From NCBI GenBank assembly GCA_951406725.2, contig OX597814.1:159774001-159838000 (forward strand): a stretch of 64,000 nt of DNA, written 5' to 3'. Positions 2,198-55,942 of the stretch are shown here, in pieces (the first letter of the stretch is position 1; each line of letters opens with the position of its first letter). Source of the DNA: Octopus vulgaris. Its lineage: Eukaryota. The notes beneath the pieces were generated by a model, which searched no databases, had not been told where the DNA came from, and saw nothing but the letters and a program-made list of their open reading frames with translations. Both the position numbers and the translations under genes were made by a program.

Positions 2198-2514
2198 AGC
2201 AAAGTATTGTGCTTTACTTCGACTTAATAGCAAACTCATTCACGGCTGACTGTATTAGCACATGAGCTCTTTCCAGTATCGCCACAAAGAAAATACAATA
2301 CTTGGTTAACACAACAGTACAAATTTTGTTGTACTACCAGCTCCGGTTAAATCCGTATAGGACTATGTCACGTGCGTAGATAAAAACATAATAACGTATT
2401 GGAATATGAAAGAAAATAACAGGTAAGAAAATGAAAAAACCGCTTACACGAAAGTATGAATTGTTGTTATTCGATATTCTTCCAGACACGAGCAGCAAAG
2501 ATAAGAAAGATCCT

Positions 2515-2702
2515 ATGGGGAGAATGCCGAGGGGAAATGTAAGACATTTTGGTCCCCCCTTTATGGGTCCGCCCATGCCAGGTGAAGGTTTTGAAGGGTT
2601 TCCACCACCACCACCTCCTTGTGCAATGAGTGCTCCTCCTCAATCGAGAAAGAAAAAAAACGCCGAGAAAGAGCGCTTGCAAGACGTGGAAGGCGAACCT
2701 AG
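2515..2702 (+). CDS. Transglutaminase coding exon 1 (Pro-rich N-terminus MGRMPRG...FPPPPPPC...SRKKKN)
   Basis: Acceptor ttccag at 2485, ATG at 2515, donor AG|gtgaat at 2703 (phase 2), matching the next exon. Confidence 0.8.
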
Positions 2703-3561
2703 GTGAATATGACTTATCGCAATAAATATTCTATGACAAACTTTCACAATTGATCAGAACTTCTATGCAATATTTTTTTAATGCGAAGGATGAGATGTAT
2801 TTTTTTAATGGATAGTATATGTATGGTTGTATTTTCTTAGATATGAGGATAATACAGAGAAACGACCTAAAAGCCCGGCAGCGACGCAGGAACGAAAATC
2901 GGAGGCCAAAGATAAGGATGTAAGAGAACCCAGGCAAGAAAATCACCATAACAGAAATGATCCCTGTGACAAACAAAGTGATGTTGGTAGTCAACATCGA
3001 AATTCTTCTGTTTTTGACACTGAATCAAAGTTTTCGGATTTAGAGAAGAGTAATAGATTTTACCCTTATCCAGAATTCGACAGGCATGGTATGATGCCTC
3101 CATTTGATATGATGCCTATGGGTTACGGTCCTCCTGACGGCATGAGACCTCCAGTGTATATGAATTATCCAGAAAAGCCTGTAGATATGTCTCGCATGAC
3201 AATGGATTTCGAAGGCAACTACATGGACAATAACGGACAATTCATGGATCCCTTAGATATGCCACAGCATAACGAAATGGATCTTCTTAGGGAGAATATG
3301 AACTTCCGTCCTCCATATATGGACCAATTTCCTGGAGATATGGATGGTTGTGTGGGTATACCTCCCATGGAAATGAAACGTTACACTCAAAGACGGAAAG
3401 ATGGGTTTGATGGTAAGTAGGAAAGAAATGCATTAAACTGCATGGTGCCTCCTTAATATAACTCATGCTTGCACATATAGACACACTTAAATTGCAAACA
3501 CAGAAAACCCTTAGGATACAAAATATACATACATGCATGCATACATATATATATGTATATG

Positions 3562-3860: not shown

Positions 3861-5101
3861 ATATAGGATAAAATTTTTTTCGGAAAAAATTTTTATCAAT
3901 GGCCAGCATATCATAAAATGCCTTTAAAGGTAAAATTTATACATAATTTACAAGATAAGAGCAGAAGAAAAATTCTAATGCCAAATATGCCGAAACAAAA
4001 GATTTTGTCGATAACCATTATAATTTATACGTCTCGAAAAAGACCGATAGAAATCTCTAAAAAATTCGTTATTACCGTATTGGTCCAATTTCGGGGTTAA
4101 TTCCTAAGAAATTTTCCCCTCTTCAGCGGCAAATACGCGAGATATAAATGAAATACTTACTCATACCCACGGAGAAAGCAAGCACTAAGTCCCGAGCAGA
4201 CTTAAATACCCCAAATATATCCAGATTTGGTATTAGAATTTTTCTTCAGCCCTTATCTTGTAAATTATGTATAAATTTTACCTTTAAAGGCATTTTTTGA
4301 TATGCTGGCCATTGATAAAATTTTTTTCCCGAAAAAAATTTTATCCTATATTAATTATAAATAGACTAGCAGTATCGCCCGGCGTTGCTCAGGTTTGTAA
4401 GGGAAATAACTATAAAGCATTTTTAGAGAGTTATAGCCCAAAAATAGCAAAAAAATGGAAAAAAATGATGGTAATTTTTTTTTTTTTAGTTAAAAAAAGG
4501 TGGAGTTGCGTCCCCTAGACAGGTTGCGGTTTGTGTTTCTGATTCTCGACCCCATGTCGAATTTATCGATTTTTTTCAGAACTGGGGGAACTTTTCAAAA
4601 TTTTCGCTGCGTTAGTTTTGAATTATGGCATTGAGCTATGTGTGTGTCAAGTTTCATCAGAATCGGTTGAAAGCCGTGGTCAGGGTGAGGGTACAAGCAA
4701 ACAGACACACAGAAACACGCACAGACAAACTGCCGTTTATATAGAGAGAGATTAGTGTTCACTTCCGGATTTTATCACTCTGTGAAAGTTTCTAGTTCGA
4801 GTCTCGAGGTGCGCCGAAGATTTTTCTATTTTTGATATATTTCGGGTACTTAAGTCTGCTCGGGACTTAGTGCTTGCTTTCTCCGTGGGTATGAGTAAGT
4901 ATTTCATTTATATCTCGCGTGTTTGCCGCTGAAGAGGGGAAATTTCTTAGGAATTAACCCCGAAATTGGACCAATACGGTAATAACGAATGTTTTAGAGA
5001 TTTCTATCGGTTTGTTTCGAGACGCATAAATTATAATGGTTATCGACAAAATTTTTTGTTTCGGCATATTTGGCATTAGAATTTTTCTTCTGCCCTTATC
5101 T

Positions 5102-9226: not shown

Positions 9227-12200
9227 CCATGCATGTGTATATACATGGGTTGGACAAAATAATGGAAACACCTTGCATCATAGCATCATAATTTTGAAAT
9301 ATCTATAAAAGCGTCAAAAGCTTGTTTATTTTTATGTTTCTTGATTTATTATTAGTGTTGTTTAATATGTTTTGCTAAAATTGCTGCTTCTTTTCAGATA
9401 TCATCAAAAAAAGGTAATTAAAATTCATTAAAATATCAGATCTACCGGACTTTCAAAGAGGTCAAATTGTTGGTGCTCATATGGCAGTCCATACCTCATA
9501 GAATTCAAGCTGTAATTACTACCAAAGGCGGTTCTACTCAATATTAAAATTAATTTGAAATGTTAAGGTGTTTCCGTTATTTTGTCCTGTATATCTGTAT
9601 ATAAATATACATACATGCATAATTACACCCCCCATCACGCCCCCCCCCCCACACACGATTATCTTAATCGAAGGATTAAGATGACCACTATTGAATATAG
9701 AACTCAAAACTTTGACTTCACTTTAAGAATTAGTTTGTGCGTGCGTGCGTGCGTGCGTGTGTGTGAGAGAGAGTGTGTGACATGTGAAATTGTAAGTATA
9801 GCAAATACAAGAAAAAAAAAAGAAAAGGAAAATATTTTAAAGTTTAAAATATAATTATTTTTCAGAGATGAGTCCTCAAGAACTCATGGAAAATGGAATG
9901 CTGATCGTTACTCACGTCGACTATCACTTGGATGAAACTTTGAGGCTTCATCACACTGACCAATATGATATTGGCCAGAATGGTCAATTGATAGTTCGAC
10001 GTGGACAACCATTTATGTTGACTATTGAATTTCATGAAGAATACAACGAGGAGAAACATAAAATAAGATTCATCTTCCAAATTGGTTAGTATTTCTGTGA
10101 TCGTTTACTGAATTAAAATTATTTATTTATACGTTGGCAGAATCGTTAGCACACCGCGCAAAATGCTTAGCGGCATTTCGTCCGTCGTTACGATCTTTGT
10201 TCAAATTCCGCCGAGGTCGATACTAGCTTTGTTCCAAATTTTGAAACTAAAATTATTTATTCATTTATCTATTAATTTACTAAACAATAATATGGTTTTC
10301 TTTGTTTCCATAAGGTGAACACCCTCTACCATCAAAGAAGTCTGACATCAGGTTTGGCCTGACCGACAAATGGTATCCAGAAGAATGGGGAGCAAAACTG
10401 GTGTCCAGGAGAGGCAGAATGATTACTGTCTGTGTTCACCCTGCTTGTGATTGTATTGTAGGAGTGTGGGATTTTATGATTAAAACTACAGTAAGCGGTA
10501 AAGGAAGCTACATTTTCGACAATTTTGAGCAAATCTACATCCTCTTCAACCCTTGGGGCCAAAGTAAGTTGCTGAAAATAAATAGCAATCTAAGACTTGT
10601 GATCTATTCGAGTATTTGTTGTTCATAGATTTGTGCACGTCTGTATGAGTGAAGACATGCATGCTTGACCTCTCGTGTCCAGAAGTGTACTGTGTGTGTG
10701 ACTGTGCGTGCGCGCGTGAATGCGTGCGTGTGTGCGCGTGTATGTGTGTGTGTACGTCATCTCCTTGAATTATTTAGTTGCCACTAGATTTCACCCCTTG
10801 CATGTATGTATGTATGTATGTATGTATGTATGTATGTATGTATGTATGTATGTATAGCACATTTAACTGCTTTTTTATTTATTGACCTGGTCTAGAAGTA
10901 GAGGCTGTGCCCAAACTTTCACAGGGCCTCTGTTAAGATCTTATATGAACTGTTAACCCTGTAGGAATGACATTTTGTGATGGTGAGGAGTAATGTTCTG
11001 AAGCGGAAGAAATGAACGAAGGGTTTAGTGTTGTGTATGGTGGGGATAACGTGTGAAGGAGGTAACAGGGCTAACGTGCGTATAATATGCATAACGTGTG
11101 AAAGAGTTGAATGAGTCAGGACTGTTTGAGTGGAGAAAGCACGACATCACCACTTCCAAGGAGTCGAGGCCACGACAGTAGTCGTAGAAAAAGCAAAGAG
11201 CAATAGCATGTCTGTGCCGTAGCGTAGCAGTAGTAGAGGAGGAAGCGACAAGAACGGTCCAACCCGGACGACGCTTTTGTGGGACCAGCATTTTTGCGCT
11301 GGTTGTATAAGCTTGGGGGCTTTGGGAGAGGTGGTATGGTCAAAATCAAGGGTTGTCCCAGACAGCACACTTTCTAGCCACGCCAGAGAGACAATTGTAA
11401 GAGTGTGAGGTGTGCGACTTTTAACCACTAAATCGAATGACCTTTCTTTGGGTGTAGCCTGGATTGTCTACGTGTATAGCAACAGCGCTATGTCAGACTT
11501 GGAAGCATTGCTCTATTGTTGGTTTATCTGAGCTTTGTAGAGGATCAATAGTTGTTGTGGGGAGCGGTACGAAATCTCTGAAGAGGAAGGTAAAGCTTCG
11601 TAATGCGATTTTTAATATATTAAGGATGTGTGTTCATCCTTAATAAGAGAAAGGCCTCTCATTTGAAGTCATCGTGAATTTTCTAGTTGCGTGTTGATCG
11701 TGGATTGTGATGGTGTATTCTTGATACGGGTAGCGATTGTGTCTTTTTTGTAAATATGTATATTCTACGAGATCTAATGTGCAAGTATATGTATGAATTT
11801 GCATAATTATTATTTAGATATTAGAAAGCTTCACTTCGAATGTGATAAGAGTGAAAGTGTTTGCTTTATTATTACATTGACGGAAAGGCTTTCCAAAACT
11901 TTAATTTCAGTTTTGACTTAGGCCATGTTGCATATAAAATAGACATCTTACTTATGTATTCTTACCAATGCCCTCCTCCTCCTCCTCCTCCTCGTCTTCC
12001 TCCTTTATCCACTTCTATCTCTTTCTCTCTCTTCTTTCTGTCAACATGTCTATATTTCAGTATAAATTGTTATTCTTTCCAGCTGATCAAGTATACATGG
12101 AAGATAAAGACCTTCTCTATGAATATGTGCTAAATGATCATGGACACATATTTCAAGGAAGCGGGTGTTCTTCCGTTTACCAGAAACCCTGGAATTATGG

Positions 12201-12506
12201 TCAGGTATGCTTTAAAAGTAACATGTTGCTTTCGTTTAACACTTTTCCATCGTTAAGCACACAGAAAATAACTGAGCGTCTTCTAGCAGATCAGTTTCGG
12301 AAATACTTCTACATCAGAGACGTACCACTATTCTTTGGATAACCAGCGAACTTTGAATCGAAATTGTAATATATATATAGCGGTAGTTTATCATTAATGG
12401 TCGTCCTCAATTATTTGCAATACATTATTTGCCGCGTAGTAAATTAAATAAAAAAAAAAATATTCATGTAGAAAACTTAATTCAAGATACTTGAAACATG
12501 TACAAA

Positions 12507-12566
<60 letters not shown>

Positions 12567-13098
12567 GGAGATTCAAAACCTTTCGAAGTATCAGAACAAT
12601 GGTGGTATAACATCTCTGATAAGAGCCAGTTATTCTGAAACAGATTTATAGGGAGATTCACAGTTTCTGTTTACTGAAAAGAACAACAGTTTCCTCATTA
12701 TCACAGACTTCGCAGCTAAGGCTTTCAAATAAGTAAGCATGTTTCAGGTATATCGAACTGCACTATATATATATATATATATATATATACACCTCCTTCT
12801 CTTACACTTTCCTGTCTGAGAAAGAACTTTTTCTTTGCCCATTCCCTTCCGGTTATTCCGAAAGGTAACTACATGTGGATTGTTGGCGATTTTTTTCCTC
12901 CATCTTTCTTTTCTCTTGGACTTTCTTCTGTCTCCTGTTTTTAAAGAAGAGCTTTGCTCGAAACGTAAAACACCCTTTCTTTCCTTCCCTGAGCGTTTTT
13001 TAATTCTTTGCATGTACCACGTCCTTGTGTTGTTTTTTTTCTTGTGTTTTTTCTTCGTTTTTTATTAACTATATATATATATATGCACACACATATAA

Positions 13099-13161
<63 letters not shown>

Positions 13162-15160
13162 AAGTTGCTCATTTACTATATTATTTTATTTACTTTTTCG
13201 TCTCTGAAAAGAAAAGGGAAATATTTGTTAATATTTGTATCTTTACAGTTTGACGAAGATATTTTGGATATCGCCTTATATCTGATGCGCCAGGGATTCT
13301 TGGAATATTGCCCTCAAATGAGTAGCCCTGTGCGGGTTGCACGAGTGCTTGTTCATGTGGTAAGTAATTTTGTGTTTATGTCTTGGTCGGGAAGGAATAA
13401 TAGGATTCATGACTTGTTTTCTCCGGATCTCCAAGACCGTGGGAGGAAAGTATTGAAGAACCAATGAGTTATAAGTTATCCTCAAAACAGCGACCTGGAT
13501 TAAATATTCACAACAATAACTTGTTAACCCGTCCGGCGAGTTAAGTCAGATGGTAACTAGATAATTTAATGAGCTGACGTATACACACACACGAACGTGC
13601 ACGCGCGCAAGCAAGCATACATACATACATACATACATACATACATACATACATACATACATACATGCATGCATGCATGCATACATACATACATACATAC
13701 ATACATACATACATACATACATACATACATACATACTGATACGCATCTAAATATACATATATGTTTGTTTATAATCATAATCCATGCTTAATACAAATTG
13801 TCTGAGTTGAATCATTCAACTCAAGATTATTTACACTGGTAACAAGAAAATATTATTCTTACTACTGTATAGAAAATATACATATTGATGGAATGTACAT
13901 GCTCAATATTGTCCTTTCGTTTTCCATAGAAATTTAGCTGAACAAAAAAATCTAAGATAGTAATATTTATTAATCCTGTTTAAATTATTAATTCAGCTGT
14001 ATTCTATTTTAAACGTTTTATTAATTTTTCTGAAGTAAATAACCCAGTGATTATGAATGCACAGTTCTATTGTCAGCCACATACAATCTGACCTGTGTAT
14101 ACATTTCTCTAAAGCATTTAGCATTGCCAAAAACTGATTTCACCCTTTTTTTTTAAAGCCAATAGAAGAGGAGGGCAGTGTCTATGACCTCTTAAGGCCT
14201 TTACAGAAATAGCAAGACTAATGTAAACGATGGCCAGTTTGAGCCTCAGCAAGCCAATGTCTGCAGGAAAAATATGGGTGGGTGGTGAATTATCTTTGTT
14301 CTTGACAGAATATTTGCAACAGGATAAGGCGGTAAACTGGGCGGTGCGCGGAGCAAAATGCTTAGCGGCATTTAGTCAGTCTTTACATTCTGAGTTCAAA
14401 TTCTGCCGAGGTAGGCTGTGCCTTTCATCCTTTGGGAATCGATAAAATAAGTACAAGTTGAACACTGGGGTCGATGTAATCGACTTATCCCCTCCCCGGA
14501 AATTGCTGGCTTTGTACCAAAATTTGAAATCAATATTTGTAACAAGGTGGTCTTCGCTACAGGCATCCATGAAACAGTTTGTGGTGTTAAACAGGGTGAT
14601 GATTTAGACCTCCTACCAAAATAAGCTGCTTAAATTGCATTATGGTTTCTTGATTGATATGAAATAACGAGGCATTGCTATCCTTTCCTTAGATAATTTT
14701 CAGTATTTCTTATTAGCGAATTGAATTTTCAACTGCCCAATCTAATTTGTTGCGCCTAATCTAGAAATTCAACTTAAATAATATCTAATTTCTTTTCTGA
14801 TGAAAAGTCATGCCCAACAGGTTCACAAACCTATTCGATTTTTCTATCTTTATTGTCTTTTAAATTTGTGTTGCTTTGTAGATCAATTCTCCTGAAAACA
14901 CTGGAGTAATGATGAGGTTTGATTCCGATAATTGTCAAAACGGCAAAAAACCAACAGCATGGGGTGGTAGTCGAAGAATTCTTCAGCAGTTTATTGATAC
15001 CAAAGAACCAGTTAAGTATGGACAGTGCTGGGTATTTTCTGGACTTCTTACTACAGGTATTCTTTTCAATATACTCTCTGTTGTGTCGTAAACAGAAACA
15101 TTGATCAAAGGATTTTAGTAAAGTCGTGAAAATGATGTAGTAATGCTTCGTGTGCCTCTG

Positions 15161-15198
<38 letters not shown>

Positions 15199-15445
15199 CA
15201 TTATTATTATTATTATTATTATTTGATGAAAACTCTCAGCATATTTTGCTGGATATGATGGAAAGTGTCACTTGTCCTAGCCAGCAGACTAATATGATAC
15301 TTTTTTTCTGAGTTCAAATTCCGCTGAGGTCGACTTTACCTTTCATCCTTTCGGGGTCAATTAAATAAATACCAGTTACGCACTAGGATCGATGTAATCG
15401 ACTTAATCCCCTCCCCCACGCTGCCCTTGTGGCACAAATTTGAAA

Positions 15446-15521
<76 letters not shown>

Positions 15522-16801
15522 GGCGGGGAACTGACGGATTCATTAGCACGCCGGGCCAAATACTTAGCAGCATTTCGTCCATCTTTATGCTCTGGGTTCA
15601 AATTACGCCGAAGTCGACTTTACCTTTCATCCTTTCGGGATGGAATAAAATAAGTACAATTTGAGTTACTGGGGGTCGATGTAATCGACTATCCCCCTAC
15701 CCCAGAATTTCGGGCATTGTGTCTATATTAGAAAAGATTATTATCATCGTTATTATTGAAATTACCTTGACCTCTACTTCACTTGAGATCACCTGCATAC
15801 CCTTTATGTCAATAAAATCTGCCCTCAGCTAAATGTCCCAACGTTGTCTACAAAGCTTAATTACTTCAAGCTAACTTATTTTACTCTGTATTGGTTGTCC
15901 AAAGTCGAATATTCATGAAGCAACATCAGCCGTCAGTAACTATCATCTTACTGATGAATGTTATATCACTATATGAAAACTTTTGTGGAGGCGCAATAGC
16001 CCAGTGGTTAGAGCAGCGGACTCGCGGTTGTAGGATTGCGGTTTCGATTCCCAGACCGGGCGTTAGGAGTGTTTATTGAGCGAAAACACCTAAAGCTCCA
16101 CGAGGCTCCGGCAGGGGGTGGTGGCGATCCTTGCTGTACTCTTTCGCCACAACTTTCTCTCACTCTCTTCTGTTGGCCTGCTCGCTTAGCCAGCAGGGTG
16201 GCGTCATTTGAAGGCTAAAACAATGCGAAGTGCATTGTGACCAGCGATGTGTAGTAACATCTGATAGCCTGGTCGGTCACGGTGATCACGGTGATATGAA
16301 GACTTTTATTTTTAGTAATCTCAACAATCGCATCTAAAAGAGTCCATTTTAAAAACATTTGTTTTGTTCATTCCTTTATTTATTTCCAGTTTGCCGGGCC
16401 CTGGGTATTCCTTGCAGAACTGTTACCAATTTTAACTCTAACCACGACAGTGATGATAACTTGTCTGTCAATGTTTATCTTGGAGAAGACGAGAAAGGAA
16501 ACATCTTTGAACAAAAGGAAGGAAATGTTTGGTTAGTTGATGTCAATTTTAAAAGTTTATAACGGTTGTAGATTGCTAGAATTGTTAAGCATCGCACACA
16601 AGCCTTGCAGTATGTCCCTGTACATTCTGAATTCAGATCTATCCCGGATCGTCTTTACTTTTATTTATTTATTATTATTATTATCATTATTCAGTAGTTT
16701 TATTTTTATAGCGTGCTTTCACTTCACTACCGAGCGCAGCTCTGTGTGCCTTGGGTATGTGCTGTGATTTGTTGTGATGCTCTGATGGTTATTGTATGGA
16801 A

Positions 16802-16862
<61 letters not shown>

Positions 16863-19800
16863 TTCTTGGAGTTAATAAAATAAGCACTAGTCAAATACTA
16901 GTGTCAATACAATCGACTGTACTCTCACTCACCAAAATTTGTCATTTAAAAAATTATTGTTGATTATTTAACTATACTAGAAATACATTAACTGCGGAAT
17001 TATAGTGTTAACCGGCTGAACACTTGGTCGTGTGTTAATCCATTATTAATACTTCAGAAGGCGGCAAGCTGGCAGAATCGTTAGCAAGCTGGGCTAAATG
17101 CTTAGCGGCATTTCTTCCGAGTTCTAATTCAGTTAAGGTCAGTTTTGCCTTTCATCCTTTCGGTAAATTAAAGTATCGGTTAAGCACTGGGGTTGATGGA
17201 ATCGACTAGCTTCCTGTCCCAAAATGTCAGGCTTTGTACCTATAGTAAAAAGGACTGTTAATACTTCAAAATCTGTCACGCACCAGGGCAACACCTTCAA
17301 ATATAGTTACGTCAGTCTACCTGGCTGCTAAACAGGTTTTTCTCCGGTTTCATGACTGCATAGTTAGCATCGAGCTACAAAATAATCGCCCTAAAAATAC
17401 ACAATACAATGAAAATAATCCCAGCCATTCTAAGACAGGAACATGGACGTAAAGCGATAGACAAAAGGTTATTCCATAAGAAATCAACATTTTTTTTTTG
17501 TTTGCAAAATGAATCAATATTTTATATTTAAACAACTCATCCAGGCTAAGACGTTGTATATGGATTCATAAGGAGGAGCAAGTGAGATTGTTTGGCATCC
17601 AGGATTTTCTGAAAAGAATTAGTAATTTAAGTGAGAAAGAGACTTAGTAATTTAAAGCTTTAACCATAAGTCGAAACTAAACCGTAGAATCAGCTCGTCG
17701 GAAGTTTATCTCTTGTCTCAACAGTGAATATCTGAATCCAATCTGTAACTTTACCAACACTACCTTGTTTGCTATTTCCACCAAACTGCAAATAGGTATT
17801 ATCTAGTTCTATAACTCGCCCTACTTAGGGTTTTGGTAACAGACACATACTCCCACCCCAGCCAAAACCTACAATAACTTGCGTAGCAATACAAGCATTA
17901 AGATATATTTTTACATTTTGAATGTTATAATAAATTTCAGCACACAGCATTCACTTTGCAAGGGCATGCGGCAAGCATATGAATCTGCAGTGAGAAGCCC
18001 TGTACAGTCGATCGTCCTTAGGAATATTCTACATTACCAATATATTCTTTATTCTATATTTCGATTAAGAAATAAATAAGTGATTAAATTTAAAACCAAA
18101 GTAAATTGCAAATCATAACACCAGCAGCGATATTGAATGATTCTTGAAATTCCTTCTTGATTTATATTGAAAAAAAAAATAATAAAAGGAATAAAAATAA
18201 TGCAGAAGATTAACAAATGATTCTTTTATGTATTTTTCATAATAAATTTTCATCTTTCATATTTTAACTATATTTAGGAATTTCCATGTTTGGAATGATG
18301 TTTGGATGAGTCGTTCAGATCTTCCTGTGGGATACTGTGGCTGGCAGGCTGTCGATCCAACCCCCCAAGAAGCAAGCGACGGTAAAACATACTTAACTGT
18401 TTTGTAATTATCTCATTTTTAAATATCATTTCTATTAGAAACAAATTGTTTTAATGTTGTGTATTCCTCTTAATTTTCCTTGAGTTAATCCAGGGAACCT
18501 TAAGTAAACAGGTACCATATTTTCGAAAAAAGGAAATATTTGAGATAAATCTTCTCGGGTCCAATATGCAAAGTTGAGCCTCCCATAAGTTTTAATCTAC
18601 TGATTGAACATAACTTGATATTTTGATGTGTTACTCCTATTGCATTAACCCATGTATTTCTTACTGCCTTTCCTTCAAGTAGTTCCTAGCATGGACGGTA
18701 CCTGTTCTTTTAGGAGGTAGACATATTCAGAATATATCACCTAAACATTAATAATCTCTCTGTTAATACTTATCCGATATTGTCGCATTAGGATCCTATG
18801 ATGAATATGTACAATTATTCCAAAGCTTCAACTTCATATCGCATGCCTTTTAGGTTTAAATTATATTTAAAACAAAAGTAAAACGAATAATTTCAATAAC
18901 TTTGTTCCTGTGTTAGGTATTTACTGCTGCGGACCTGCTCCTCTGAAAGCTATAAAGAATGGTGAAGTGAACCAAACTTTTGATACTAACTTTATATTTT
19001 CGGAGTTAAACGCTGATCGGGTCTACTGGAAGAAAAATCACCGTTCAGGAAAATGGGAAATTGTTCATATTGATAGAAATGCGTAAGTAGAGTTAACCAT
19101 TATTTTTCATTTCGATAACATGACCAATATATTCAATATTATCTGAGTGAATTGAAATTTTGAAAAACTGAATTTATTTTTCCATTGATAGATTGGGCAA
19201 GTTCATCTATACCAAGTACCCAAATTGCAAACCCGGTCATAATCGCAGTGGTGGTTTGATGGACATTACATTTGATTACAAGCTGGTCAATGGTATGTAT
19301 GGTAGAACAGTTCAAGAAATAACATATTGTAAATGGATCTAATTTGATAATATGAGTTATTGAAAGGATACAAGCTTTACTTTGAATGTATTAGCACTTA
19401 GAGTGCTGTTATTGTAATTGTGTTTACTATAGTAATATCATTTGTATATAGGGTATGTAAATCAAATATCGGCAATTAAAATTATGCGACACTCTTCAAC
19501 AGTAATGCACTGCTTCTAATTTGTTACGAAATTATGAACAATTTGCACGTGTAACAAATAAGATAGTATATTTGTTAGCGTTGATATGTTCACCTTAGCC
19601 CCATGTATACAAGGCGCTAACAATTCCGTTCTTTTTCTCAAGCCGTTACTGTCTTGAAGAATTTTTTTTTTTTTTTTGCTCAAAGTTCACATCACATTCA
19701 TGATTTGAAGCTATCGTTTTTGTACAGTTGTTCTTTATCTACAATCAACTAAGCCATATATTTACGGAATCAACATCTTCGGCTCACATAGTCTAATTCA

Positions 19801-20294
19801 ATTAGGTGCAAGAATGAACCGTCGTATGATATAATTTACCATTGAAGGATTTGCATTATATCCTTCAGAAATGAAATTTTTATCACAATCATTGGAGCAT
19901 TCTGTGTATTTTAAACTGTCCAGTGCAAAAGCCGATACTGTATTACCGTTTGTATGCAAGTATATTTGTATGGGCTGCTAGAGAACTATATTTATTAAGT
20001 TAGTGAACAATAATGTAATAATGTGAAGTTTCTCTATTGTTGCTTAATAATCTCCCTTTTTTTAAAATATCACACTTTCTATATTCAACTAATAATCATT
20101 CCAATAATCATTCTAAGGTTCAGAATATGATCGTATTGATGTAATCAATGTCCACCGGAAAAAAATGATGCTTCACAGGGCCAAGAAATCTTCACACTAT
20201 CAGGAGGTAGGAACACGTCAGTGTTACAAATTTCTCTCTGCTTTTCTATCTTTTCCCAAAAGTTTATTGGAAGTTTACCCTGTACACGCGCACA

Positions 20295-20365
<71 letters not shown>

Positions 20366-21688
20366 GGCAACACTACACTTGTTATGTCTAGAAATTGCTG
20401 TTTTACTTTTTTTTCTATAATGCAGCTTCAGTGTTTTCATAAATGTAAATGAATCCAAAATTGATAAGTTAGGTAGTAAATCTGCAAACTGAAGCATTTC
20501 TTTTCAATAATATAGGTTGTATTTTTCACATATACGGAATGATGAAGTAATGATATAAAGTTCATTTAAAGCACTGTTAACAAGAATCCAATATTTCATG
20601 AAATATAATTTCCTTTCCATTAAAATATAGAATCATAAATGGAAATATCTATGCAGTTTTCCCAGTTAATCTATAAATATGCAAAGATACTTACTTAATA
20701 TAACATTATATAAATAGTGAGAGACCAATAATATTTGAGATTAATTTCTGTGGTATTGCTCTTAAACTTAGACACAAGGTTGATTTATAGCTATTACAGA
20801 TGTAAATACTATTTATAATGTGAATCAGAAATGAAGCCTCTACACCGGCAATAGCAACCATATCTTCATCAAATCACACTTTACCGCCTTTAGATACAGA
20901 ATGTGTTAGAAAATATAGTCTGTGGCAACAACAACAATAATAATACTTTCTACTATACGCACAAGCCCTGAAATTTGTGGGGAGGGAACTAGTCGATTAT
21001 ATCAACCCCAATACTCAATTGATACTTAATTTATCGACCTCGAAAGGATGAAAAGCAAAGTTGACCTCGGTGGAATTTGAACTGTAGCGACAGACGAAAT
21101 ACCGCTAAGCATTTTGCCCGGCATGCTAACGATTCTGCCAGATCGCCCCCTTAATAACACATATAATAATAATAATAATCATAATAATAATGGTTTCAAA
21201 TTTTGGCATAAGGCCAATAATTCCGGGTATGCGGGTAAGTCGATTATATCGACCTCAGTGTTCAAATAGCACCTATTTTATCGACCTTTAAGTCGGTTAG
21301 AGGTTACATGGGGGAGATTTAGCTGCAATGTCTAGCAGAGCAAGTAACCATGTAGATAGCCATCATTGACTCCAAGAAACAGATGTAGTAGTATGGTATT
21401 GGTAGGTGAAGCGTTCAACTCCTCCTGCATAGAAAACTAATTAACATAAATCAGCATTTAATATTTCTGTGAAGAGGTTAAGGCGGCGAGCTGGCAGAAT
21501 CGTTAGCACACCCGACAAGATGCTTAGCAGTATTTCCGTACGTCTTTACATTGTGTTCAAATTACGCCGAGGTTGACTTTGCCTTTCATCCTTTCAGGGT
21601 TGATAAAATAAATGTCAGTTGTACACTGGGGTCGATATAATCGATTATATCGACTTATTCTCTCACCCGAATGGTTCAGATTCTTGCG

Positions 21689-21719
<31 letters not shown>

Positions 21720-22614
21720 TTGATGTGTACTTGTAGATATGTACATACAAATATCCACACATATGCTCATGCATACTTATGTAAATGCATTCAAATGATA
21801 GAAAATAAAATTAGATGTAAAGTTTTAATTTACATTACTGTAAGTTCTAATCTAAGACGATTATATATTTCCAATTCAAACACAATACAGGATGTGGAAT
21901 TCCGTATAAGTGAGAGGGAAAGTGTGATGGTTGGCCAAGATTTCAACATCACTCTCCACTGCCGCAATACTGGTCAAGATCAGCGTTACGTAAGCAGTTC
22001 AGTTTATTGCAAAATTGTCGACCACTTTGGTGAGAAGATTGGTATATGTCGTGAATTACATGTCAATAATTTCTTTGACGCCAAGAACAGTAAGTAGCTT
22101 TTTTCTAAATCTCTAGCTCTCTATCCAGCACGTGTTCTTCATCAAAATTCTTCTCTTTAACCTAATTCATAAAACTAAATTAATTCGTTCTCACTCGTTA
22201 TTTGTCCACAAGTTTCCTCGTAATTCACCCAATACTTTTCATTTATTTAGCGTAACCATTCATTTAGTTATTTCTCAGTTCACAAAATCAATATGTACAT
22301 AAAATCAGAAACTATAATTACACATTTTTTTTCGTTCTTCTAATATCCAGGTAAAATGATAGTCATGAACGTTGCTCCAGAAGACTATATGCCGTTTTTG
22401 GGACGTGACAATAACTCTCGTTTGTCAATGAGAATTATGGTCTATTGCAAAGTTAAACAGACTGACCAAATGTTCGTTTTCAATGACAGTTATCAACTTG
22501 ATTGGCCTTACTTGACCATTGAGGTTTGTTTTATTACCCTTTTAGCATGCTACAAGATATTTAAACGATCGTTCAAGTAACAGACAGGAATTTTATACAC
22601 ACACACAGACACAC

Positions 22615-22654
<40 letters not shown>

Positions 22655-22815
22655 CCACTCAACGATGAACCACTTCTACCTAGCTTTGATTGGCAGCCTC
22701 AACAACAACATGCTTTCAGTTGCAATCCCTGCCGGAGTTTTAGTGGTAAATCAAATCGAGCACTTATAGTACCTTCCTTATTACATTACGACATTTGACG
22801 AAAATCCTTTACCTA

Positions 22816-22867
<52 letters not shown>

Positions 22868-25010
22868 GCAAGGTTGTGTATGCGTGTGTGTGTATACATG
22901 TATGTATGAAGAATGATAATCTTTTCTACTCTAGGTACAAGGCCTGAAATTTCTGGGGAGGGGGCTAGTCGATTAAACCACCCCCAGTACGCAACTGGTA
23001 CTTAATTTATCGACCCCGAAAGGATGAAAGGCAAAGTCGACCTCGGCGGAATTTGAACTCAGAATATAAAGACAGACGAAATACCGCTGAGCATTTCGCC
23101 CGGCATGCTAACGCTTCTGCCAGCTCGCCGCCTTATGAATAATCTTTTTTACTTTAAGCACAAGGCCCGACATTTTGCGAGAAGTGGCCAGTCGATTAGA
23201 TCAACCCCAGTACACAACTTATGAGTAATGATAATAAAGTCAAAACAAGTATTAATATTTTGCATGCATTTAAAACACACGTTTCAGGTAATTAAACAAA
23301 AGAGAATTATTTTCTTTTTGCGGCATCATTCTTTCTAACTAATTTTGTTATGTTATTACAGGTTCCTCCGAAGATCAGAGTGAGAGATGAAGTCATGGCA
23401 CGCATATCTTTTGTTAATCCTTTGGATATTCCACTTACAAACTGTGAACTGATGTTGGAAGGAAATGGATTCGAACGCATTTATGAGATTCGTGTTAGGT
23501 AAGTTTCAGAATTTTGTCGAGAGTAAAAGTTTCTTTTTACAAATCTACCAGCTTCGGTCTGCAATTCTATCAGTTTACAACTATTTGTCAACGGGTTAAT
23601 GTGAAAGCCTTTTACGTGGCTAATTGACCTGTTAGAAATAACAGTCAAATCTTCTTGTAATACCTTATTATCTTAAAAAGGAGAAATTTACATTAGATAA
23701 AGTAATCGTACACACTCCTGAAAAGAAGCGATTATGGTTGCAATGCCTTTGATCTTAGCTGTGTTGAACGTATGCTAAATAAAACGACAACTAACATTGA
23801 TTTCTAGCATAGACAGAAGCTCACACCCTTGAGGATGGTGCCACAGTCGATTATATCGAACATAGTACTTAACTGCTAACATATCGACCAGATACTGCAA
23901 AATAATTTTCATTCACAAGAAACCTCATTTCGTAAATCATTTTTATTTTCCATTATATGCAACAGAATCAATACTAGACTAAGATAACTATTTATGAATG
24001 ATACTTAATATAAAAACACCGTGAAAAGCAAATTTATTGCGGTATTCACTCTGATGTATCTCTTATGAACATGCTGTGTTTAAAAATACAATATATATAT
24101 CGGAGGTAGACGAAAATCGCCCTAGTAGAGAATGCATCTAACATTCTCAGCCACCACTGCTAGGATGATTTTCGTCTGCCTCCGATAGATCTTGTTTTTT
24201 AAACGCAGCACGTTCATAAGAGATATTATTCCCAGATGAATACCGCACTAAATTTGCTTTTCTGATGTGTTTACATTGAATATGATACATAGATGTCCAC
24301 TTTTATTTCTTACGAAAACTGATCAATGAATATTTATTAGATTAAAGATTTCTCCTTATATATATATATATATTTCAATGACATAATACATCTTTTTTTT
24401 TTATGCTTATTTCAGGAATACTCCCTCCTTTTCTTTACGTATTTCAATATCTTACCCCTTTTTAAACAATTCAATTAAATTCATTCTAATTTATATATTT
24501 GGATTTTTTTCTCACTCTTTTACATATCTCAGTAACATTTTTACACATTCAATGAAATTCCTCCCTCCCTCTTTCTCTCTCTCTCTCACGCACACACACA
24601 CGCGCAAACACACACACGAATACTCACGCACATAAACAAACACAAACACACAGAGAAACACACACACACATAAAAAACACACACACACGAACGAACACAC
24701 ATTTTAGTGAAGATTTCAATGGAATCTTTCTCTTGTTACATATTTCAGTTTAATTCCCGCTCCTCCTATTTTTCCTCAAGTATTTTGCTAGAATATTATT
24801 TATTTATCTTGTTTACATATTTATTTCAAATCTGTAATTGACGTTCCTCTTTTCTTTTCTATTAACAGTGATGTTCCGCCACATGGTAACTTTATGGAAG
24901 AGATTGTATTCATCGGACGCAAGATTGGTGAAAAACAATTAGTTGCTACATTCTACTGCCAAGAACTATGCGATATCGTTGGTAGCTCCATGCTCCAAGT
25001 CTTCAAATAA
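2515..25010 (+). CDS. Transglutaminase (protein-glutamine gamma-glutamyltransferase, annulin/hemocyte-TGase-like), 16 coding exons, 962 aa, with a reflectin-motif N-terminal extension (whole gene span)
   Basis: Exons 2515-2702, 2841-3412, 9866-10084, 10315-10563, 12083-12204, 13249-13359, 14882-15056, 16390-16531, 18278-18381, 18917-19082, 19192-19292, 20118-20206, 21891-22089, 22351-22523, 23362-23498 and 24869-25010 splice (all GT-AG) into one 2889-nt open frame. TGase motifs: [30 protein letters not shown] (catalytic Cys), WNFHVWND (His), [11 protein letters not shown] (Asp), [17 protein letters not shown]. Confidence 0.95.
2841..3412 (+). CDS. Transglutaminase coding exon 2 (charged, then Met/Pro/Asp-rich; contains the reflectin motif)
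   Basis: Acceptor attttcttag|, 572-nt open frame, donor G|gtaagt (phase 1) compatible with exon 9866. Confidence 0.85.
3525..3857. repeat. (TA)n compound microsatellite with higher-order TACATGCATGCATACA...TGTATATGTATGTA unit
   Basis: Directly visible. Confidence 0.95.
3861..5103. repeat. Nested long inverted repeats (3861-3986 / 4225-4352 and ~3950-4222 / 4833-5103), flanked by (TA)n
   Basis: Reverse-complement identity read directly. ORFs 3918+ and 4954- encode nearly the same peptide. Confidence 0.9.
4366..4751 (-). mobile_element. Non-autonomous mini-Helitron (Lep1-like)
   Basis: Minus strand: A|TC start, internal gtctgt repeats, subterminal hairpin (cctgagcaacgccggg) and CTAG|T end. 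Confidence 0.75.
5103..5428. repeat. (TA)n/(TG) compound microsatellites
   Basis: Directly visible. Confidence 0.95.
5436..5570 (+). mobile_element. Abundant SINE (MetaSINE-like core gcctttcatcctttc..ggtcgataaaataagtacc), partial
   Basis: Same consensus as more than 10 other copies in this window. Confidence 0.8.
5621..5775 (-). mobile_element. Penelope-like element terminal-repeat (pLTR) fragment
   Basis: Homologous to 53395-53540, which lies directly downstream of a GIY-YIG remnant. Confidence 0.6.
5929..6152 (+). repeat. ~100-bp direct duplication (5929-6032, 6052-6152) separated by (GATA)n
   Basis: Near-identical units read directly. Confidence 0.9.
7182..7377. repeat. Near-perfect palindrome, 97-bp arms, 2-nt loop
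   Basis: 7182-7278 is the reverse complement of 7281-7377, with one mismatch seen. Confidence 0.93.
7432..7516. repeat. Perfect hairpin, 39-bp arms, 7-nt loop
   Basis: aaaatcaagg...cacccacta / tagtgggtg...ccttgatttt. Confidence 0.93.
8160..8410. repeat. (TAA)n microsatellite containing a ~40-bp retroelement 3'-end fragment (8247-8284)
   Basis: The fragment is the reverse complement of 63419-63456. Confidence 0.85.
8568..8762 (+). mobile_element. Abundant SINE copy (MetaSINE-like)
   Basis: aggcgagctagtagaatc...gactttgcttttcatcccttcgg...gatgtaatcgactt. Confidence 0.85.
9244..9590 (+). mobile_element. Internally deleted Tc1-like DNA transposon
   Basis: TIRs ggacaaaataatggaaacacct / aggtgtttccgttattttgtcc. 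Transposase N-terminus ([13 protein letters not shown]) lies beside its C-terminus ([18 protein letters not shown]). Confidence 0.8.
9866..10084 (+). CDS. Transglutaminase exon 3 (beta-sandwich: HHTDQYD...LIVRRGQPF)
   Basis: ttttcag| acceptor, G|gttagt donor, TGase N-domain motifs. Confidence 0.95.
10315..10563 (+). CDS. Transglutaminase exon 4 ([10 protein letters not shown]...CIVGVW...[10 protein letters not shown])
   Basis: ccataag| acceptor, A|gtaagt donor, conserved LFNPW. Confidence 0.95.
12083..12204 (+). CDS. Transglutaminase exon 5 (DQVYM...EYVLND...PWNYGQ)
   Basis: ttccag| acceptor, CAG|gtatgc donor. Confidence 0.95.
13249..13359 (+). CDS. Transglutaminase exon 6 ([10 protein letters not shown]...[12 protein letters not shown])
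   Basis: tttacag| acceptor, GTG|gtaagt donor. Confidence 0.95.
14325..14535 (+). mobile_element. Abundant SINE copy (MetaSINE-like)
   Basis: Matches the window consensus. Confidence 0.85.
14882..15056 (+). CDS. Transglutaminase exon 7 with catalytic Cys (YGQCWVF, TGC at 15026-15028)
   Basis: tttgtag| acceptor, G|gtattc donor, active-site signature. Confidence 0.97.
15300..15738 (+). mobile_element. Two tandem SINE copies (15300-15447 partial, 15518-15738) separated by (ATT)n
   Basis: Match the window consensus. Confidence 0.85.
15987..16293 (+). mobile_element. tRNA-derived SINE with target-site duplication
   Basis: A-box (TAGCCCAGTGG), B-box-like (GTTTCGATTCC), cggtgat tandem tail, and ~16-bp TSD atatgaa(a/g)actttt(g/a)t at 15971 and 16294. 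Confidence 0.8.
16390..16531 (+). CDS. Transglutaminase exon 8 ([19 protein letters not shown])
   Basis: ttccag| acceptor, TG|gttagt donor. Confidence 0.96.
16690..16800 (-). mobile_element. 3' end of a Dong/R4-clade LINE within (TAA)n
   Basis: Homologous to 63160-63368; flanked by (ATT)n. Confidence 0.65.
17058..17255 (+). mobile_element. Abundant SINE copy
   Basis: Matches the window consensus. Confidence 0.8.
18278..18381 (+). CDS. Transglutaminase exon 9 with catalytic His (18285-18287) and Asp (18354-18356): [17 protein letters not shown]...[11 protein letters not shown]
   Basis: tatttag| acceptor, G|gtaaaa donor. Absent from the ORF track; translated by hand. Confidence 0.97.
18917..19082 (+). 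CDS. Transglutaminase exon 10 ([16 protein letters not shown]...[11 protein letters not shown])
   Basis: tgttag| acceptor, GC|gtaagt donor. Confidence 0.96.
19192..19292 (+). CDS. Transglutaminase exon 11 (LGKFIYTK...DITFDYK)
   Basis: gatag| acceptor, G|gtatgt donor; G.xI.TK and DIT..YK motifs. Confidence 0.93.
20118..20206 (+). CDS. Transglutaminase exon 12 (GSEYDRIDV...HYQE)
   Basis: ttctaag| acceptor, GAG|gtagga donor; phase-compatible on both sides. Confidence 0.9.
20946..21153 (-). mobile_element. Abundant SINE copy
   Basis: Reverse complement of the consensus. Confidence 0.85.
21479..21668 (+). mobile_element. Abundant SINE copy
   Basis: taaggcggcgagctggcagaatcgttagc start. Confidence 0.85.
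21891..22089 (+). CDS. Transglutaminase exon 13 (beta-barrel 1: DVEFRI...VGQDF)
   Basis: aatacag| acceptor, A|gtaagt donor. Confidence 0.93.
22351..22523 (+). CDS. Transglutaminase exon 14 (PEDY...CKVKQTDQ...PYLTIE)
   Basis: atccag| acceptor, GAG|gtttgt donor. Confidence 0.93.
22921..23134 (-). mobile_element. Abundant SINE copy (near-consensus, CpG intact)
   Basis: Reverse complement of the consensus. Confidence 0.9.
23362..23498 (+). CDS. Transglutaminase exon 15 (beta-barrel 2: [12 protein letters not shown]...EGNG)
   Basis: ttacag| acceptor, AG|gtaagt donor. Confidence 0.95.
24010..24275. mobile_element. Fold-back/MITE-like element (~110-bp imperfect arms)
   Basis: aaaagcaaatttattgcggtattca...atcggaggtagacgaaaatc pairs with gattttcgtctgcctccgat...tgaataccgcactaaatttgctttt. 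Confidence 0.75.
24869..25010 (+). CDS. Transglutaminase exon 16, terminal (DVPP...GEKQLVATF...DIVGS...FK*)
   Basis: taacag| acceptor, TAA at 25008-25010; typical TGase C-terminus. Confidence 0.94.
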
Positions 25011-40829: not shown

Positions 40830-43800
40830 GGGACTAGAAAAGGTAGCCTAAAGAAAGCCTGCCCTACACCGTCTTTCCAGTTTACCGCAGCTGGCAAACT
40901 TACCCATTTGCGGTCGATTCCAACTGAAAAAGAAACTCATCATTGGGACGTAGAACGTACGTATCCTTCTAGACCGTGACAATGTTTCAAGGCCCCAGAG
41001 AAGGAGAGCCTACTACATCGACATTACTGCCTTGAGTGAAACCAGACTGACCGAAGAAGGATCGGTGACCGAATCCAACGGATACACCTTTTTCTGAAAA
41101 GGAAAGGCATAGAGCGAAGACTGCATCCACAGGATTGGACTTGCCATCAGGACAAAACTCCTCAAACAGATCCCCGATCTCCCGACTGGTGTCAATGACA
41201 ATGAAAGGCTAATGAAGATTCGCCTCTCCATCAGCAACAGTCGGTTCATCACTATCATCAGTGCCTACGCTCCCACCATGATATCCACGGAGAAGAGTCT
41301 AGGAGCAGTTCTACACCGACTCTTCTACGCACCACGTCTGTCACTGACAAGCTCATCCTACTAGGTGGTTTCAATGCCAGAGTTGGCAGCGACAGCAACG
41401 AATGGAGGGGAGCGATCGGGAAGCCCTGTGTAGACAAAATGAATAGCAACGGACTTCTCCTGCTGAGCAAATGTGCAGAACATGAACTGCTCATCACAAA
41501 TACAGTCTTTAGGCAGGCTGATAAATACAAGAACACGTGGATGCACCCCCGATCCAAACATTGGCATCTCATAGATTACATCATCGCCCGTCAATGAGAC
41601 AGTAGTGACGTCCTGACCACCAGGGCAATGCGCGGCACAGACCACCGCCTTGTTCCAGCCAAGCTCAACATTCGCATAGTCCCCCACCACCACAAGCGCA
41701 CCAAGCTCATCAAGCAGGCCTTCATCACAGCAAGACTCCAGTCTACTCAATACGAGCGGAACTTCTAGAACAGCCCTGATGAAAGACCCAATACAGCAGG
41801 TCTGCTTACTGGTGGACCAGAGGAAAAATGGAACCAGTTCAAAGAAGCGGGCACTGAGACAGCCAAAGCAGTCATTGGCTCCAAGAGAAGATATCATTAA
41901 GACTAGTTTGAAGAAAACAATGAAGCCATAGAAGCCCTGCTGATTGAGAAGAGAGCTGCCTACATCAACTGGCAGAACTATCCCAGCTGTGTCTCACGAC
42001 GCGATAAGTTCAAGGAATGCAAGGCCAAAGTTCAGCGTGAACTCTGCACCATGCAAGATGCTTGGTAAGATAAGAAGGCTGACGAAGTGCAGTTCTACGC
42101 CGACACAAACAACTCCAAGCAGTTGTTTGACGCCATCAAAGCCATCTACGGGTCTTCAAGTAGAGGATTGGCATCCTTACTCTCTGCTGAAGGCTCTATC
42201 ATCATCAAAGACAAGAATGGTCTTAGCGCAAGGTGGCAGGAACACTTAAGCCAGCTCCTCAACTACCTTTCCATCGTCGACCAAACAGCCCTACAGCAGA
42301 TCGCCCAGAAGCCAATCCAGGAGGATCTGAACCACCCGCCTAACGAAGGAGCACAGACAGCCATCAACAGATGACCTGCGACAAAGCACCAGGAAGGGAT
42401 GAGATATCTACTGAGCTGTTCAAGTCGCTCGAACCTACAGCCTTTAACACCTACCATGACATCCTCTTGACCATCTGGGACCAGGAAGACATACTCAAAT
42501 ATCTGCGAGATGCCACCATAGTCGCTCTATATAAGAACAAAGGAGCCAAGGCATACTGTAGCAACTACAGAGGGATCTTCCTAGGCAAGATCCTCGCCTG
42601 CATCCTTCTTAACAAACTCATCGCCAACAACTCCCAGAGCAACCTGCCTGAGACCCAGTGTGGTTTCCGACCTGGTTGCAGCACCATAGACATGGTGTTT
42701 GCTGTGAGACAAGTGCAGGAGAAGTGCATTGAGCAGCAGATGGACCTGTACACTGTGTTCGTTGACCTAACCAAGGCGTTTGTCACAGTCAACTGGAAGA
42801 ACTTATTGATCATCCTCAGCAAGCTGGGTTGCCTACAAAAATTCACAACTCTAATCAAGTTCTTCTACAACATGAAGGGATAAGTCCTTTGTAACGGAGA
42901 CTACACGAACTCCTTCAACATCTTTAATGGAATCAGAGTTGTGTCCTTGCCCCAGTGCTCTCCAGCTTGTTCTTCACGCAGGTCCTCCTCCACGCTACGA
43001 AGAACCTTGACCTTGGCGTGTACATCATGTACCGAAGTGATGGCTCCGTATTCGACCTCCGCCGCCTGTCTGCCAAAACAAGGACCAGGGAAAAGCTCAT
43101 CCTCGATCATCGTCAACTGCTTCACCGAAGCACCCAGACTCTTTGACCTGACCATCAGCCTTGGAAAGACGGAGGTCCTGCTCCAGGCAGCCCCGAATTC
43201 AACAAAAACCTTAGCCAGCAATCACCATTGATGGATTTGAGCAGAACTGTGTCGAAAGCTTCAGGTACCTAGGCAGCACTATTTCTGCAGATGGTTCACT
43301 GGATAAAGAGATCACATCAAGGATCCAGAAAGCCAGCCAAGCATTCGGTAGACTCAGGGTTAAAATACTACTACAGAAAGGCATGCGGCTATCCACGAAA
43401 CTCAAGATATACAAAGCTGTAGTTCTCTACACGCTGCTGTATGGATGTGAGACGGCACATGAAGCTGTTGGAACAGTTCCATACAAGATAACTACGCACA
43501 ATCATGGGCATCTGCTGTCAGGACAAAGTATCCAATCAAGAAGTTCTAGGCAGTGCAGAGTCCACAAGCATCGAGGCACTTCTGCCCAAAGCTCAGTTAC
43601 GTTGGATTGGCCACGGCATCAGAATGAGCGACCACCGCATCTCCAGACACCTAATGTACGGTGAGCTGAAGGAAGGCACAAAGCAACAGGGAAGACCAAA
43701 GTTGAAGTATAAGGACACCCTAAAGGAAAACCTAAAGTGTTGTGACATCCAGCCTGGAAAATCTCGAGACCGCAGCCACAAACAGGGATTCCTGTAGGTC

Positions 43801-55548: not shown

Positions 55549-55783
55549 ATGGCCAGTTTAAATGCTAAAGGGTTAAAATATATCTTAACAAAATTCTTAT
55601 ATAAAACTTTAATAGAAAGTTTTAAATTAAATATGACCAGGAATTTACGTATCTTAGTAATGAACAGCCACAGGTGGGGTGATATCAGAAAGATTAAACT
55701 TTTTAATATTTCGTTATTATAAACTGAAGTCACTCATTTTTGCACTTCATGTCTTTATGTTTCTCTCATTTCTGATATTGCAG

Positions 55784-55942
55784 AATAATTGTTCAAGTAT
55801 GTCACAGTGTTTTAGATTGCTCAGTCACTTATCCTTCTCGGACAATCCGCTTCCTCTATGCATCCTTTGACCGTACTGGAGAACAATTTATTGCTGCTGA
55901 CCATCATGGAAATATTTTTGCTTTCAACTTAAATACAAACTG
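55784..55942 (+). CDS. TBC1D31: TBC1D31 coding exon 2: IIVQVCHSV...IRFLYASFDRTGEQFIAADHHGNIFAFNLNTN
   Basis: ttgcag| acceptor and TG|gtgaga donor, phase-compatible with exon 1. Matches the recalled IIVNIIH...LRFLNVAFDGTGDCLIAGDHQGNIYVFDLHGN WD40 start. No further exon recognised in the window. Confidence 0.9.

Follow-up and report, generated by a model that had tools for sequence, protein, structure and literature searches.

Introduction

Reflectins are the proteins behind the shine of cephalopod skin, and they have been treated as orphan proteins. Their octapeptide reportedly came from a transposon of Vibrio fischeri, an origin said to have been proposed by Guan et al. in 2017. A 24-bp fragment of that transposon is named as the proposed source of the octapeptide in passages of three articles (PMC9779258, PMC10552760, and PMC9259870). 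The canonical A-type reflectins combine an N-terminal motif (RMN) with internal repeats (RM), whose consensus patterns are given in a section of PMC9779258. According to portions of PMC9986269 and PMC9259870, single reflectin motifs stay freely dispersed in cells instead of condensing. A motif-only construct was found to co-localise with a linker-only construct in shared condensates in an excerpt of a recent preprint (bioRxiv 10.64898/2026.08.27.747642), which describes the motif's own role as still to be shown. In Architeuthis dux, three “reflectin-like” genes were reported on the reflectin scaffold (a section of PMC6962438). On the enzyme side, the invertebrate “hemocyte” transglutaminases, factor XIII-A, and TG2 share four domains and a catalytic triad, and the W241A replacement abolished the activity of TG2 (part of PMC2140088).

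The locus described here joins both systems. A transglutaminase gene of Octopus vulgaris, whose product P0001 has 992 aa, carries a 28-residue unit with the MD-x5-MD-x5-MD frame of the canonical A-type reflectins, and it lies in the same genomic neighbourhood as reflectins. Unlike these proteins, it has a single intact unit, optional by splicing. Among the papers listed for reflectin with transglutaminase, none dealt, by title or abstract start, with cephalopod enzymes, and the main texts of PMC6962438, PMC9068888, PMC6397165, PMC9839350, and PMC6386654 nowhere use the term transglutaminase. No announcement of a reflectin motif in another protein was found in the literature outside subscription papers and genome-paper supplements.

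Results

The Transglutaminase Gene and Its Optional Exons

The coordinates of the features are collected in Table 1; the window is the whole stretch of 64,000 nucleotides that was analysed.

Table 1. Features of the transglutaminase locus (window positions) and the lone motif on C20.
Feature	Position	Strand	Description	Evidence
Optional exon A	2486..2702	+	Pro-rich, basic; aa 21-93 of P0001	Splice ends, exon map, spliced contigs
Optional exon B	2841..3412	+	aa 94-283; AG/GT ends; phase 2 in, phase 1 out	
Left flank, a probable, strongly eroded repeat	3022..3105	+	Recognisable through orthologues only	
Intact H-type (hybrid) reflectin-family repeat	3169..3252	+	28 aa, aa 203-230	Profile scores, shuffles
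Right flank, eroded tandem repeat	3265..3348	+	In register, 32 residues after the intact unit	
Transglutaminase core	9866..25010	+	14 exons	Pfam, exon map, factor XIII and TG2 matches in PDB
Segment GVMMRFDS	14903..14926	+	At the place of the oxyanion tryptophan (TG2 Trp241); no Trp	
Catalytic Cys566	15017..15037	+	Motif YGQCWVF	
His626	18285-18287	+		
Asp649	18354-18356	+		
Lone motif on C20	C20:72,681,581-72,681,700			

Exons A and B together formed an N-terminal extension of about 265 aa ahead of a four-domain core (Transglut_N, core, and two C-terminal Ig-like domains; Transglut_N, core, and C above the Pfam cut-offs). Exon B consisted of a charged low-complexity half followed by a Met/Pro/Asp-rich, reflectin-derived half, and the peptides listed in the original prediction all lay in one frame of the plus strand, between 3052 and 3345. 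No Pfam family was found for this exon, and a word-indexed homologue search with the motif region gave no match among short proteins; among long proteins it returned P0001 itself and nothing else. Distant counterparts of exon B were nevertheless present in the proteins P0019 and P0144.

Both exons were joined to the transglutaminase core on one assembled contig in three of four public runs, and the exon and core pieces were split over two contigs in the fourth; the runs are presumed to be RNA, and their contigs skip introns. The extension was optional by annotation, since the isoforms P0002 (O. vulgaris) and P0003 (O. bimaculoides) skip both exons, a reading taken from annotated isoforms and not from skipping junctions in reads. 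Alternative first coding exons were observed at C1:159,742,655 and 159,773,237, in addition to an annotated start within exon A; together these starts provide for one short isoform besides three or more long N-termini.

The intron 3' of the motif exon held inverted copies of a repeat element (about 3870-4330 and 4930-5100, by eye from the ORF list), and a broken LINE-type retroelement occupied 41000-43800, with an RVT_1 match at 42344-42880. An exon-like frame at 55776-55943 was a fragment with no Pfam match, which we take to resemble the start of a WD-repeat protein, with a likeness to TBC1D31.

The enzyme had the complete Cys-His-Asp triad (C566, H626, and D649) and kept the equivalents of Trp332 and Thr360, as do the “hemocyte” transglutaminases, factor XIII-A, and TG2. 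It differed from all of these in the optional reflectin-repeat extension of 265 aa and in the loss of the Trp241 equivalent, the oxyanion tryptophan of active transglutaminases. This residue was present in 121 of 133 transglutaminase cores, and all 12 exceptions were members of the enzyme's own clade. Because of this loss, the sequence leaves the transglutaminase activity of the enzyme doubtful. The triad was strongly conserved in the clade that lacks the otherwise invariant tryptophan. Furthermore, the sister pair P0020/P0022 had Asp in place of the catalytic Cys, had also lost the Trp241 equivalent, and carried no extension; it is a probable pseudoenzyme lineage, and no orthologue of it was found among the three other O. 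vulgaris transglutaminase loci.

A Hybrid Repeat of the Reflectin Motif Family

The unit had been predicted to be a hybrid of the two reflectin motif types, and the scores bore this out. With profiles trained on reflectin units alone, columns 1-6 gave +7.4 bits as RM and -12.9 bits as RMN, whereas columns 7-28 gave 49.9 bits as RMN and 38.9 as RM, a split in which HMMER agreed. The hybrid unit was found to recur in further proteins as a third repeat type beside RMN and RM, named H here. Against an H profile made from the ten units of P0139 and P0146, the whole unit scored 62 bits, against 46 for RM and 37 for RMN, and the whole-motif scores were reached by none of 1500 composition-preserving shuffles. 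The internal repeat that the original prediction had given was found printed in a supplement row of PMC9986269. When a reflectin RMN was used to query the 2.8-Gb genome (14 matches in all), the enzyme motif came directly after the six reflectin RMNs (E 0.006), followed by the motif on C20 (E 0.087). An AlphaFold model from a 13-row alignment had a mean pLDDT of 33, too low to be informative.

The enzyme unit combined the frame of the reflectin motif family with a significant profile match. It shared the PE-x3-D start with canonical RM and the MTMDF..Y.D..G..hDP core with canonical RMN (consensus from the section of PMC9779258 that lists it), and the PE-x3-D start, T-M-D-F, and hydrophobic-D-P end placed it in the H type. 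It fell outside the RMN class, which begins with MEPM near the N-terminus, by the negative score of its first six columns and by its position. Canonical RM units have Y-Q-M-D in columns 10-13 (Gln in column 11 in 48/51) and usually Trp in column 18 (41/51); here the enzyme unit had M-T-M-D, with Thr in column 11, and Tyr. Nor did the protein itself have the architecture of a reflectin, a class with several motifs and cationic linkers rich in Tyr, Arg, and His that self-assembles into high-index platelets in iridophores or leucophores: it had one intact unit, acidic Pro-rich flanks, and an enzyme fusion, and its extension contained no such linkers, the Met-rich part having a net charge of -10.

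H-Type Units in Other Proteins

A phmmer search against 1.84 billion representatives gave nine matches at E <= 0.001. Three were canonical reflectins, three were P0144, P0139, and P0146, and the remaining three, P0140, P0141, and P0143, were dropped as unrelated tandem-repeat proteins. P0139 (1103 aa) and P0146 (1270 aa) were 54% identical and contained five tandem hybrid units each. Both were large and Met-rich; the middle was acidic and likewise rich in Met, and the C-terminus was conserved and looked helical. In P0146 the H repeats were preceded by a long tract of Gly-Met-x-x-like character. No match in O. vulgaris was obtained when the C-terminal stretch of P0139 served as query.

In the octopus genome itself, a single H-type motif was found on C20 in an uncharacterised single-ORF protein of 765-789 aa (P0016; orthologues P0017 and P0018). 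About 50 residues around this motif were invariant in three Octopus species, and its best non-self match in the genome was the enzyme motif. The C20 protein matched P0139 convincingly at the motif only, and orthology is therefore not claimed. Pfam held no family for the C20 protein or for P0139/P0146, and the ESM Atlas gave no usable match for the C20 protein or P0139. Querying the genome with an H unit produced 41 matches, 39 of them at the reflectin cluster, at the enzyme, or on C20. In another genome search, two matches on C6 (E 2.3, with a stop codon inside) were not recovered by the motif profile and were dropped.

None of the 51 RM units scored better outside RM, and monophyly of H in the unit tree had an AU p of 0.25 on 28 columns. 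Five H-type strings were searched in the literature, and no paper contained them. Reflectins with few or deviant motifs resembled the H-type proteins, the long Gly-Met-x-x-like tract being shared by P0146; they are small free proteins, unlike the enzyme fusion. RM*, the deviant motif of reflectin C, may overlap the H type. The “reflectin-like” genes of Architeuthis dux, which lie on a reflectin scaffold as the enzyme locus does, were compared by description and may overlap the H-type genes; the section of PMC6962438 that describes them mentions no transglutaminase.

The Reflectin Cluster Beside the Enzyme Gene

Synteny with reflectins had been suggested as a check on the motif's origin. A motif search of the own genome returned 35 matches: the motif itself, 33 in six reflectin ORFs, and one on C20. 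The six single-ORF reflectins formed a cluster at C1:159.573-159.718 Mb, adjoining the enzyme gene. The first coding exon of the enzyme (159,742,655) lay about 25 kb from the nearest reflectin ORF, head to head, and no long ORF resembling an ordinary gene was present in between, in a scan that could miss small exons. The enzyme and one reflectin had neighbouring gene-model accession numbers in O. vulgaris, O. sinensis, and O. bimaculoides, which is a hint that their order is conserved across the three Octopus species. The six reflectins, all intact, spanned C1:159,572,900-159,717,800 in mixed orientation; the two at 159.573 and 159.601 Mb were near-copies, one repeat apart, and of the six, one had an exact match in the protein collection for the start positions used.

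Four transglutaminase loci were found in the genome with a short peptide query, and the motif occurred at one only; it was absent from the three other transglutaminase regions (50 kb each). A search of the genome with the PF01841 family gave no match, probably because introns split the domain.

Eroded Repeats Around the Intact Unit

The segments on both sides of the motif had been predicted to be eroded extra repeats. This held for the right flank, which scored 6.1 bits against H with a shuffle p of 0.001-0.005, and which was also detected in P0011 (shuffle p 0.007) and Argonauta (0.014), all these values being uncorrected for three profiles. The left flank was not significant alone, as 80-97% of shuffles scored as well. 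Nevertheless, it aligned with a stretch of P0144 and P0019 that held a significant eroded repeat (24.5 and 19.7 bits, respectively), an alignment part of which was gapped by the aligner.

P0144 was a 154-aa fragment, 64% identical to and collinear with the extension of P0019, and it ended at the expected exon end; we infer its link to an enzyme core from P0019. It comprised, in order, a true RMN (63 bits), the eroded repeat, and an H unit that was intact (66 bits); P0019 had a worn RMN. From this architecture, the exon would be a decayed RMN-plus-repeats sequence with the layout of a reflectin. As judged by its sequence, exon B is thus a worn multi-repeat member of the reflectin family, and the description “single-copy” in the original prediction fits its intact unit only, in view of the eroded repeat on the right and of the RMN and eroded repeat in P0144/P0019.

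Discussion

Origin of the Exon

The reading that we consider probable is that the exon is the worn remnant of an early reflectin-family gene, taken long ago into the neighbouring transglutaminase gene. A gene with an N-terminal motif and several repeats would have entered the adjoining gene, and most of the captured repeats would have decayed afterwards while one stayed preserved. Capture had been one of two origins offered in the original prediction and stands as the best reading, although as an ancient and not a recent event, given that the motif is kept in P0019 at a core identity of 70% (86% in Argonauta). In a quick tree built from 53 of 137 proteins, P0019 grouped with the octopod enzymes at SH-aLRT 100 and lay about three times as deep as Argonauta. 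We infer that the exon was captured before the P0019 lineage split off, a split that is probably the one between octopus and squid if branch length is a guide to the date.

The reverse direction, in which the repeat arose in the transglutaminase exon and a partial duplication of this exon into the adjoining DNA founded the reflectins, with internal repeats later specialised to RM, accommodates the same observations and yet is unlikely. It would suit the position of the enzyme gene beside the cluster and the exon of P0144, which is already in reflectin order, with an RMN and then repeats, and whose RMN fell outside all eight canonical RMNs, at the weak support of 89/59. It would also suit the residues of column 11, Thr/Ser in all RMN (8/8) and H (10/10) units and in the six distinct enzyme and C20 units as against Gln in RM, and the unrooted unit trees, in which RM alone stood on one side of a 99/96 branch, RMN on one side of a 98/88 branch, and the enzyme unit outside both. 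Nevertheless, the exon was absent from 118 other transglutaminases, including the sister pair P0020/P0022, and none of them exceeded 2 bits for the motif. This set comprised gastropods, bivalves, chitons, a brachiopod, nemerteans, arthropods, chordates, and further records, so the presence outside coleoids that had been left to check was not found in gastropod and bivalve transglutaminases. Moreover, the erosion of all repeats except one resembles relaxation after a capture, and the free-standing H-repeat proteins P0139 and P0146 could be the source of both enzyme exon and reflectins.

It appears very unlikely that the octopus reflectins next to the gene recently donated the motif, by capture or gene conversion, and so produced a chimera with the start of RM and the core of RMN. 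Adjacency would favour it, as would a match of 28/32 nt to one RMN and the fact that the octopus unit equals a reflectin RMN exactly over MSRMTMDF, a stretch in which two positions are Leu and Phe in P0019 and P0144. Nesting within an octopus reflectin subfamily, the outcome that the original prediction had named as evidence of recent capture, was absent from the best trees; AU tests on alternative placements gave p 0.18-0.38 and, without power on 28 columns, could not reject it (one AU/tree run left out six long or truncated RM units). Against such an event, P0019 carried an H unit at the equivalent place (17/28 identical, as in P0144) despite the divergence of the cores, the best score of the motif was with the H profile, built from unrelated proteins, and the codons shared with reflectins (181/381, or 0.48) were at the rate found between reflectin genes; none of 42 reflectin units shared more than 52/84 of the motif DNA. 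Within octopods a short local conversion may have happened, which would leave the exon unexplained.

That both RMN and RM descend directly from the lone enzyme motif, the second origin offered in the original prediction, is hardly credible: the unit is intermediate in sequence and lies between RMN and RM in the unrooted tree, but an eroded repeat follows it on the right, P0144/P0019 have a true RMN and an eroded repeat, and since the P0144 exon begins with its own RMN, RMN predates the formation of the exon, which removes this reading. It is just as improbable that the motif is left over without a function, or is a low-complexity, Met-rich stretch of convergent origin, as its low-complexity surroundings and the equally conserved flanks within octopods might suggest, because no shuffle reached its score, its identity at deep divergence was 61% against about 22% in the flanks, and its place beside a reflectin cluster would be a coincidence.

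The last comparison depended on depth. Against P0019, the unit (17/28) was far better kept than the Met-rich flanks (20/91; Fisher p 0.0002), with 491/708 identical in the core. Against Argonauta there was no contrast between the unit (23/28) and the Met-rich flanks (67/91; p 0.26), and the unit was no more conserved than the left flank (32/38). Neither of the two outcomes that had been named as grounds for rejecting the idea came about: nesting was absent from the best trees, and at the deep distance the unit was far more constrained than its flanks.

The Octapeptide and the Root of the Motif Family

The original prediction held that an ancestral motif would compete with the bacterial-transposon origin of the reflectin core peptide. 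The transposon idea is weakened by the distribution of the string DMSGYQ, carried by 12 RM units and absent from the other classes, although it is not refuted, the tree being unrooted. An octapeptide confined to one of three unit types, with the other types in more gene contexts, fits a derived state, and by these sequences a root on the RM branch is possible. What survives of the ancestor idea, with an unrooted tree of 28 columns, is a weaker form in which the internal repeats would go back to the hybrid type. Additionally, a degenerate 24-base pattern of the octapeptide matched five times in GTDB species genomes, against two for a shuffled control. None of the five matches was titled Vibrio or Aliivibrio, and the exact octapeptide was present in two, both in frames with stops. 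This shows that the pattern matches GTDB genomes at chance level; a mismatched DNA match would be outside its reach.

A more far-reaching version, speculative and on balance improbable, is that H is the ancestral reflectin unit, that reflectins arose here in a coleoid genome out of or beside the transglutaminase exon, that the octapeptide came late, and that the motif was first a docking tag. If this were true, a docking tag common to the enzyme and other proteins would later have been multiplied into an optical material.

A Possible Docking Tag

Returning to the favoured reading of an ancient capture, we tentatively propose, as a suggestion that may well fail, that the preserved repeat is a tag through which reflectin assemblies take up the long isoform. 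Single motifs that do not condense, and a motif-only construct that joins a linker-only one, would suit such a tag. Splicing would switch the tag on or off, and the enzyme would not assemble with itself, most of its repeats having decayed. Once recruited, the long isoform could modify glutamines of reflectins by deamidation or amine attachment, which would lower their net charge; alternatively, as the oxyanion tryptophan is absent, the recruited protein might be a scaffold. The octopus reflectins contained 9-31 Gln and 0-11 Lys each, and with so few lysines they would be poor crosslinking partners. Judging from these compositions, crosslinking of reflectin to reflectin is less likely than a scaffold role or a weak activity in deamidation or amine attachment. 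The long enzyme transcript and reflectin contigs were both present in run X1, the only one of the four runs with reflectin contigs; there were none in X9, which has the exon, or in X21 and X24, although blank contigs do not amount to absence.

The locus shows a reflectin motif outside reflectins, with one intact copy under selection in a spliceable enzyme exon beside the cluster, and it reveals a third repeat type in further proteins. The H-type paralogues are material for rooting the motif tree in combination with Nautilus and Vampyroteuthis, and the exon is a natural single-motif construct for studying motif binding. The enzyme becomes a candidate modifier or scaffold for reflectin platelets, and the locus offers a new handle on the origin of reflectins and on the role of their repeat.
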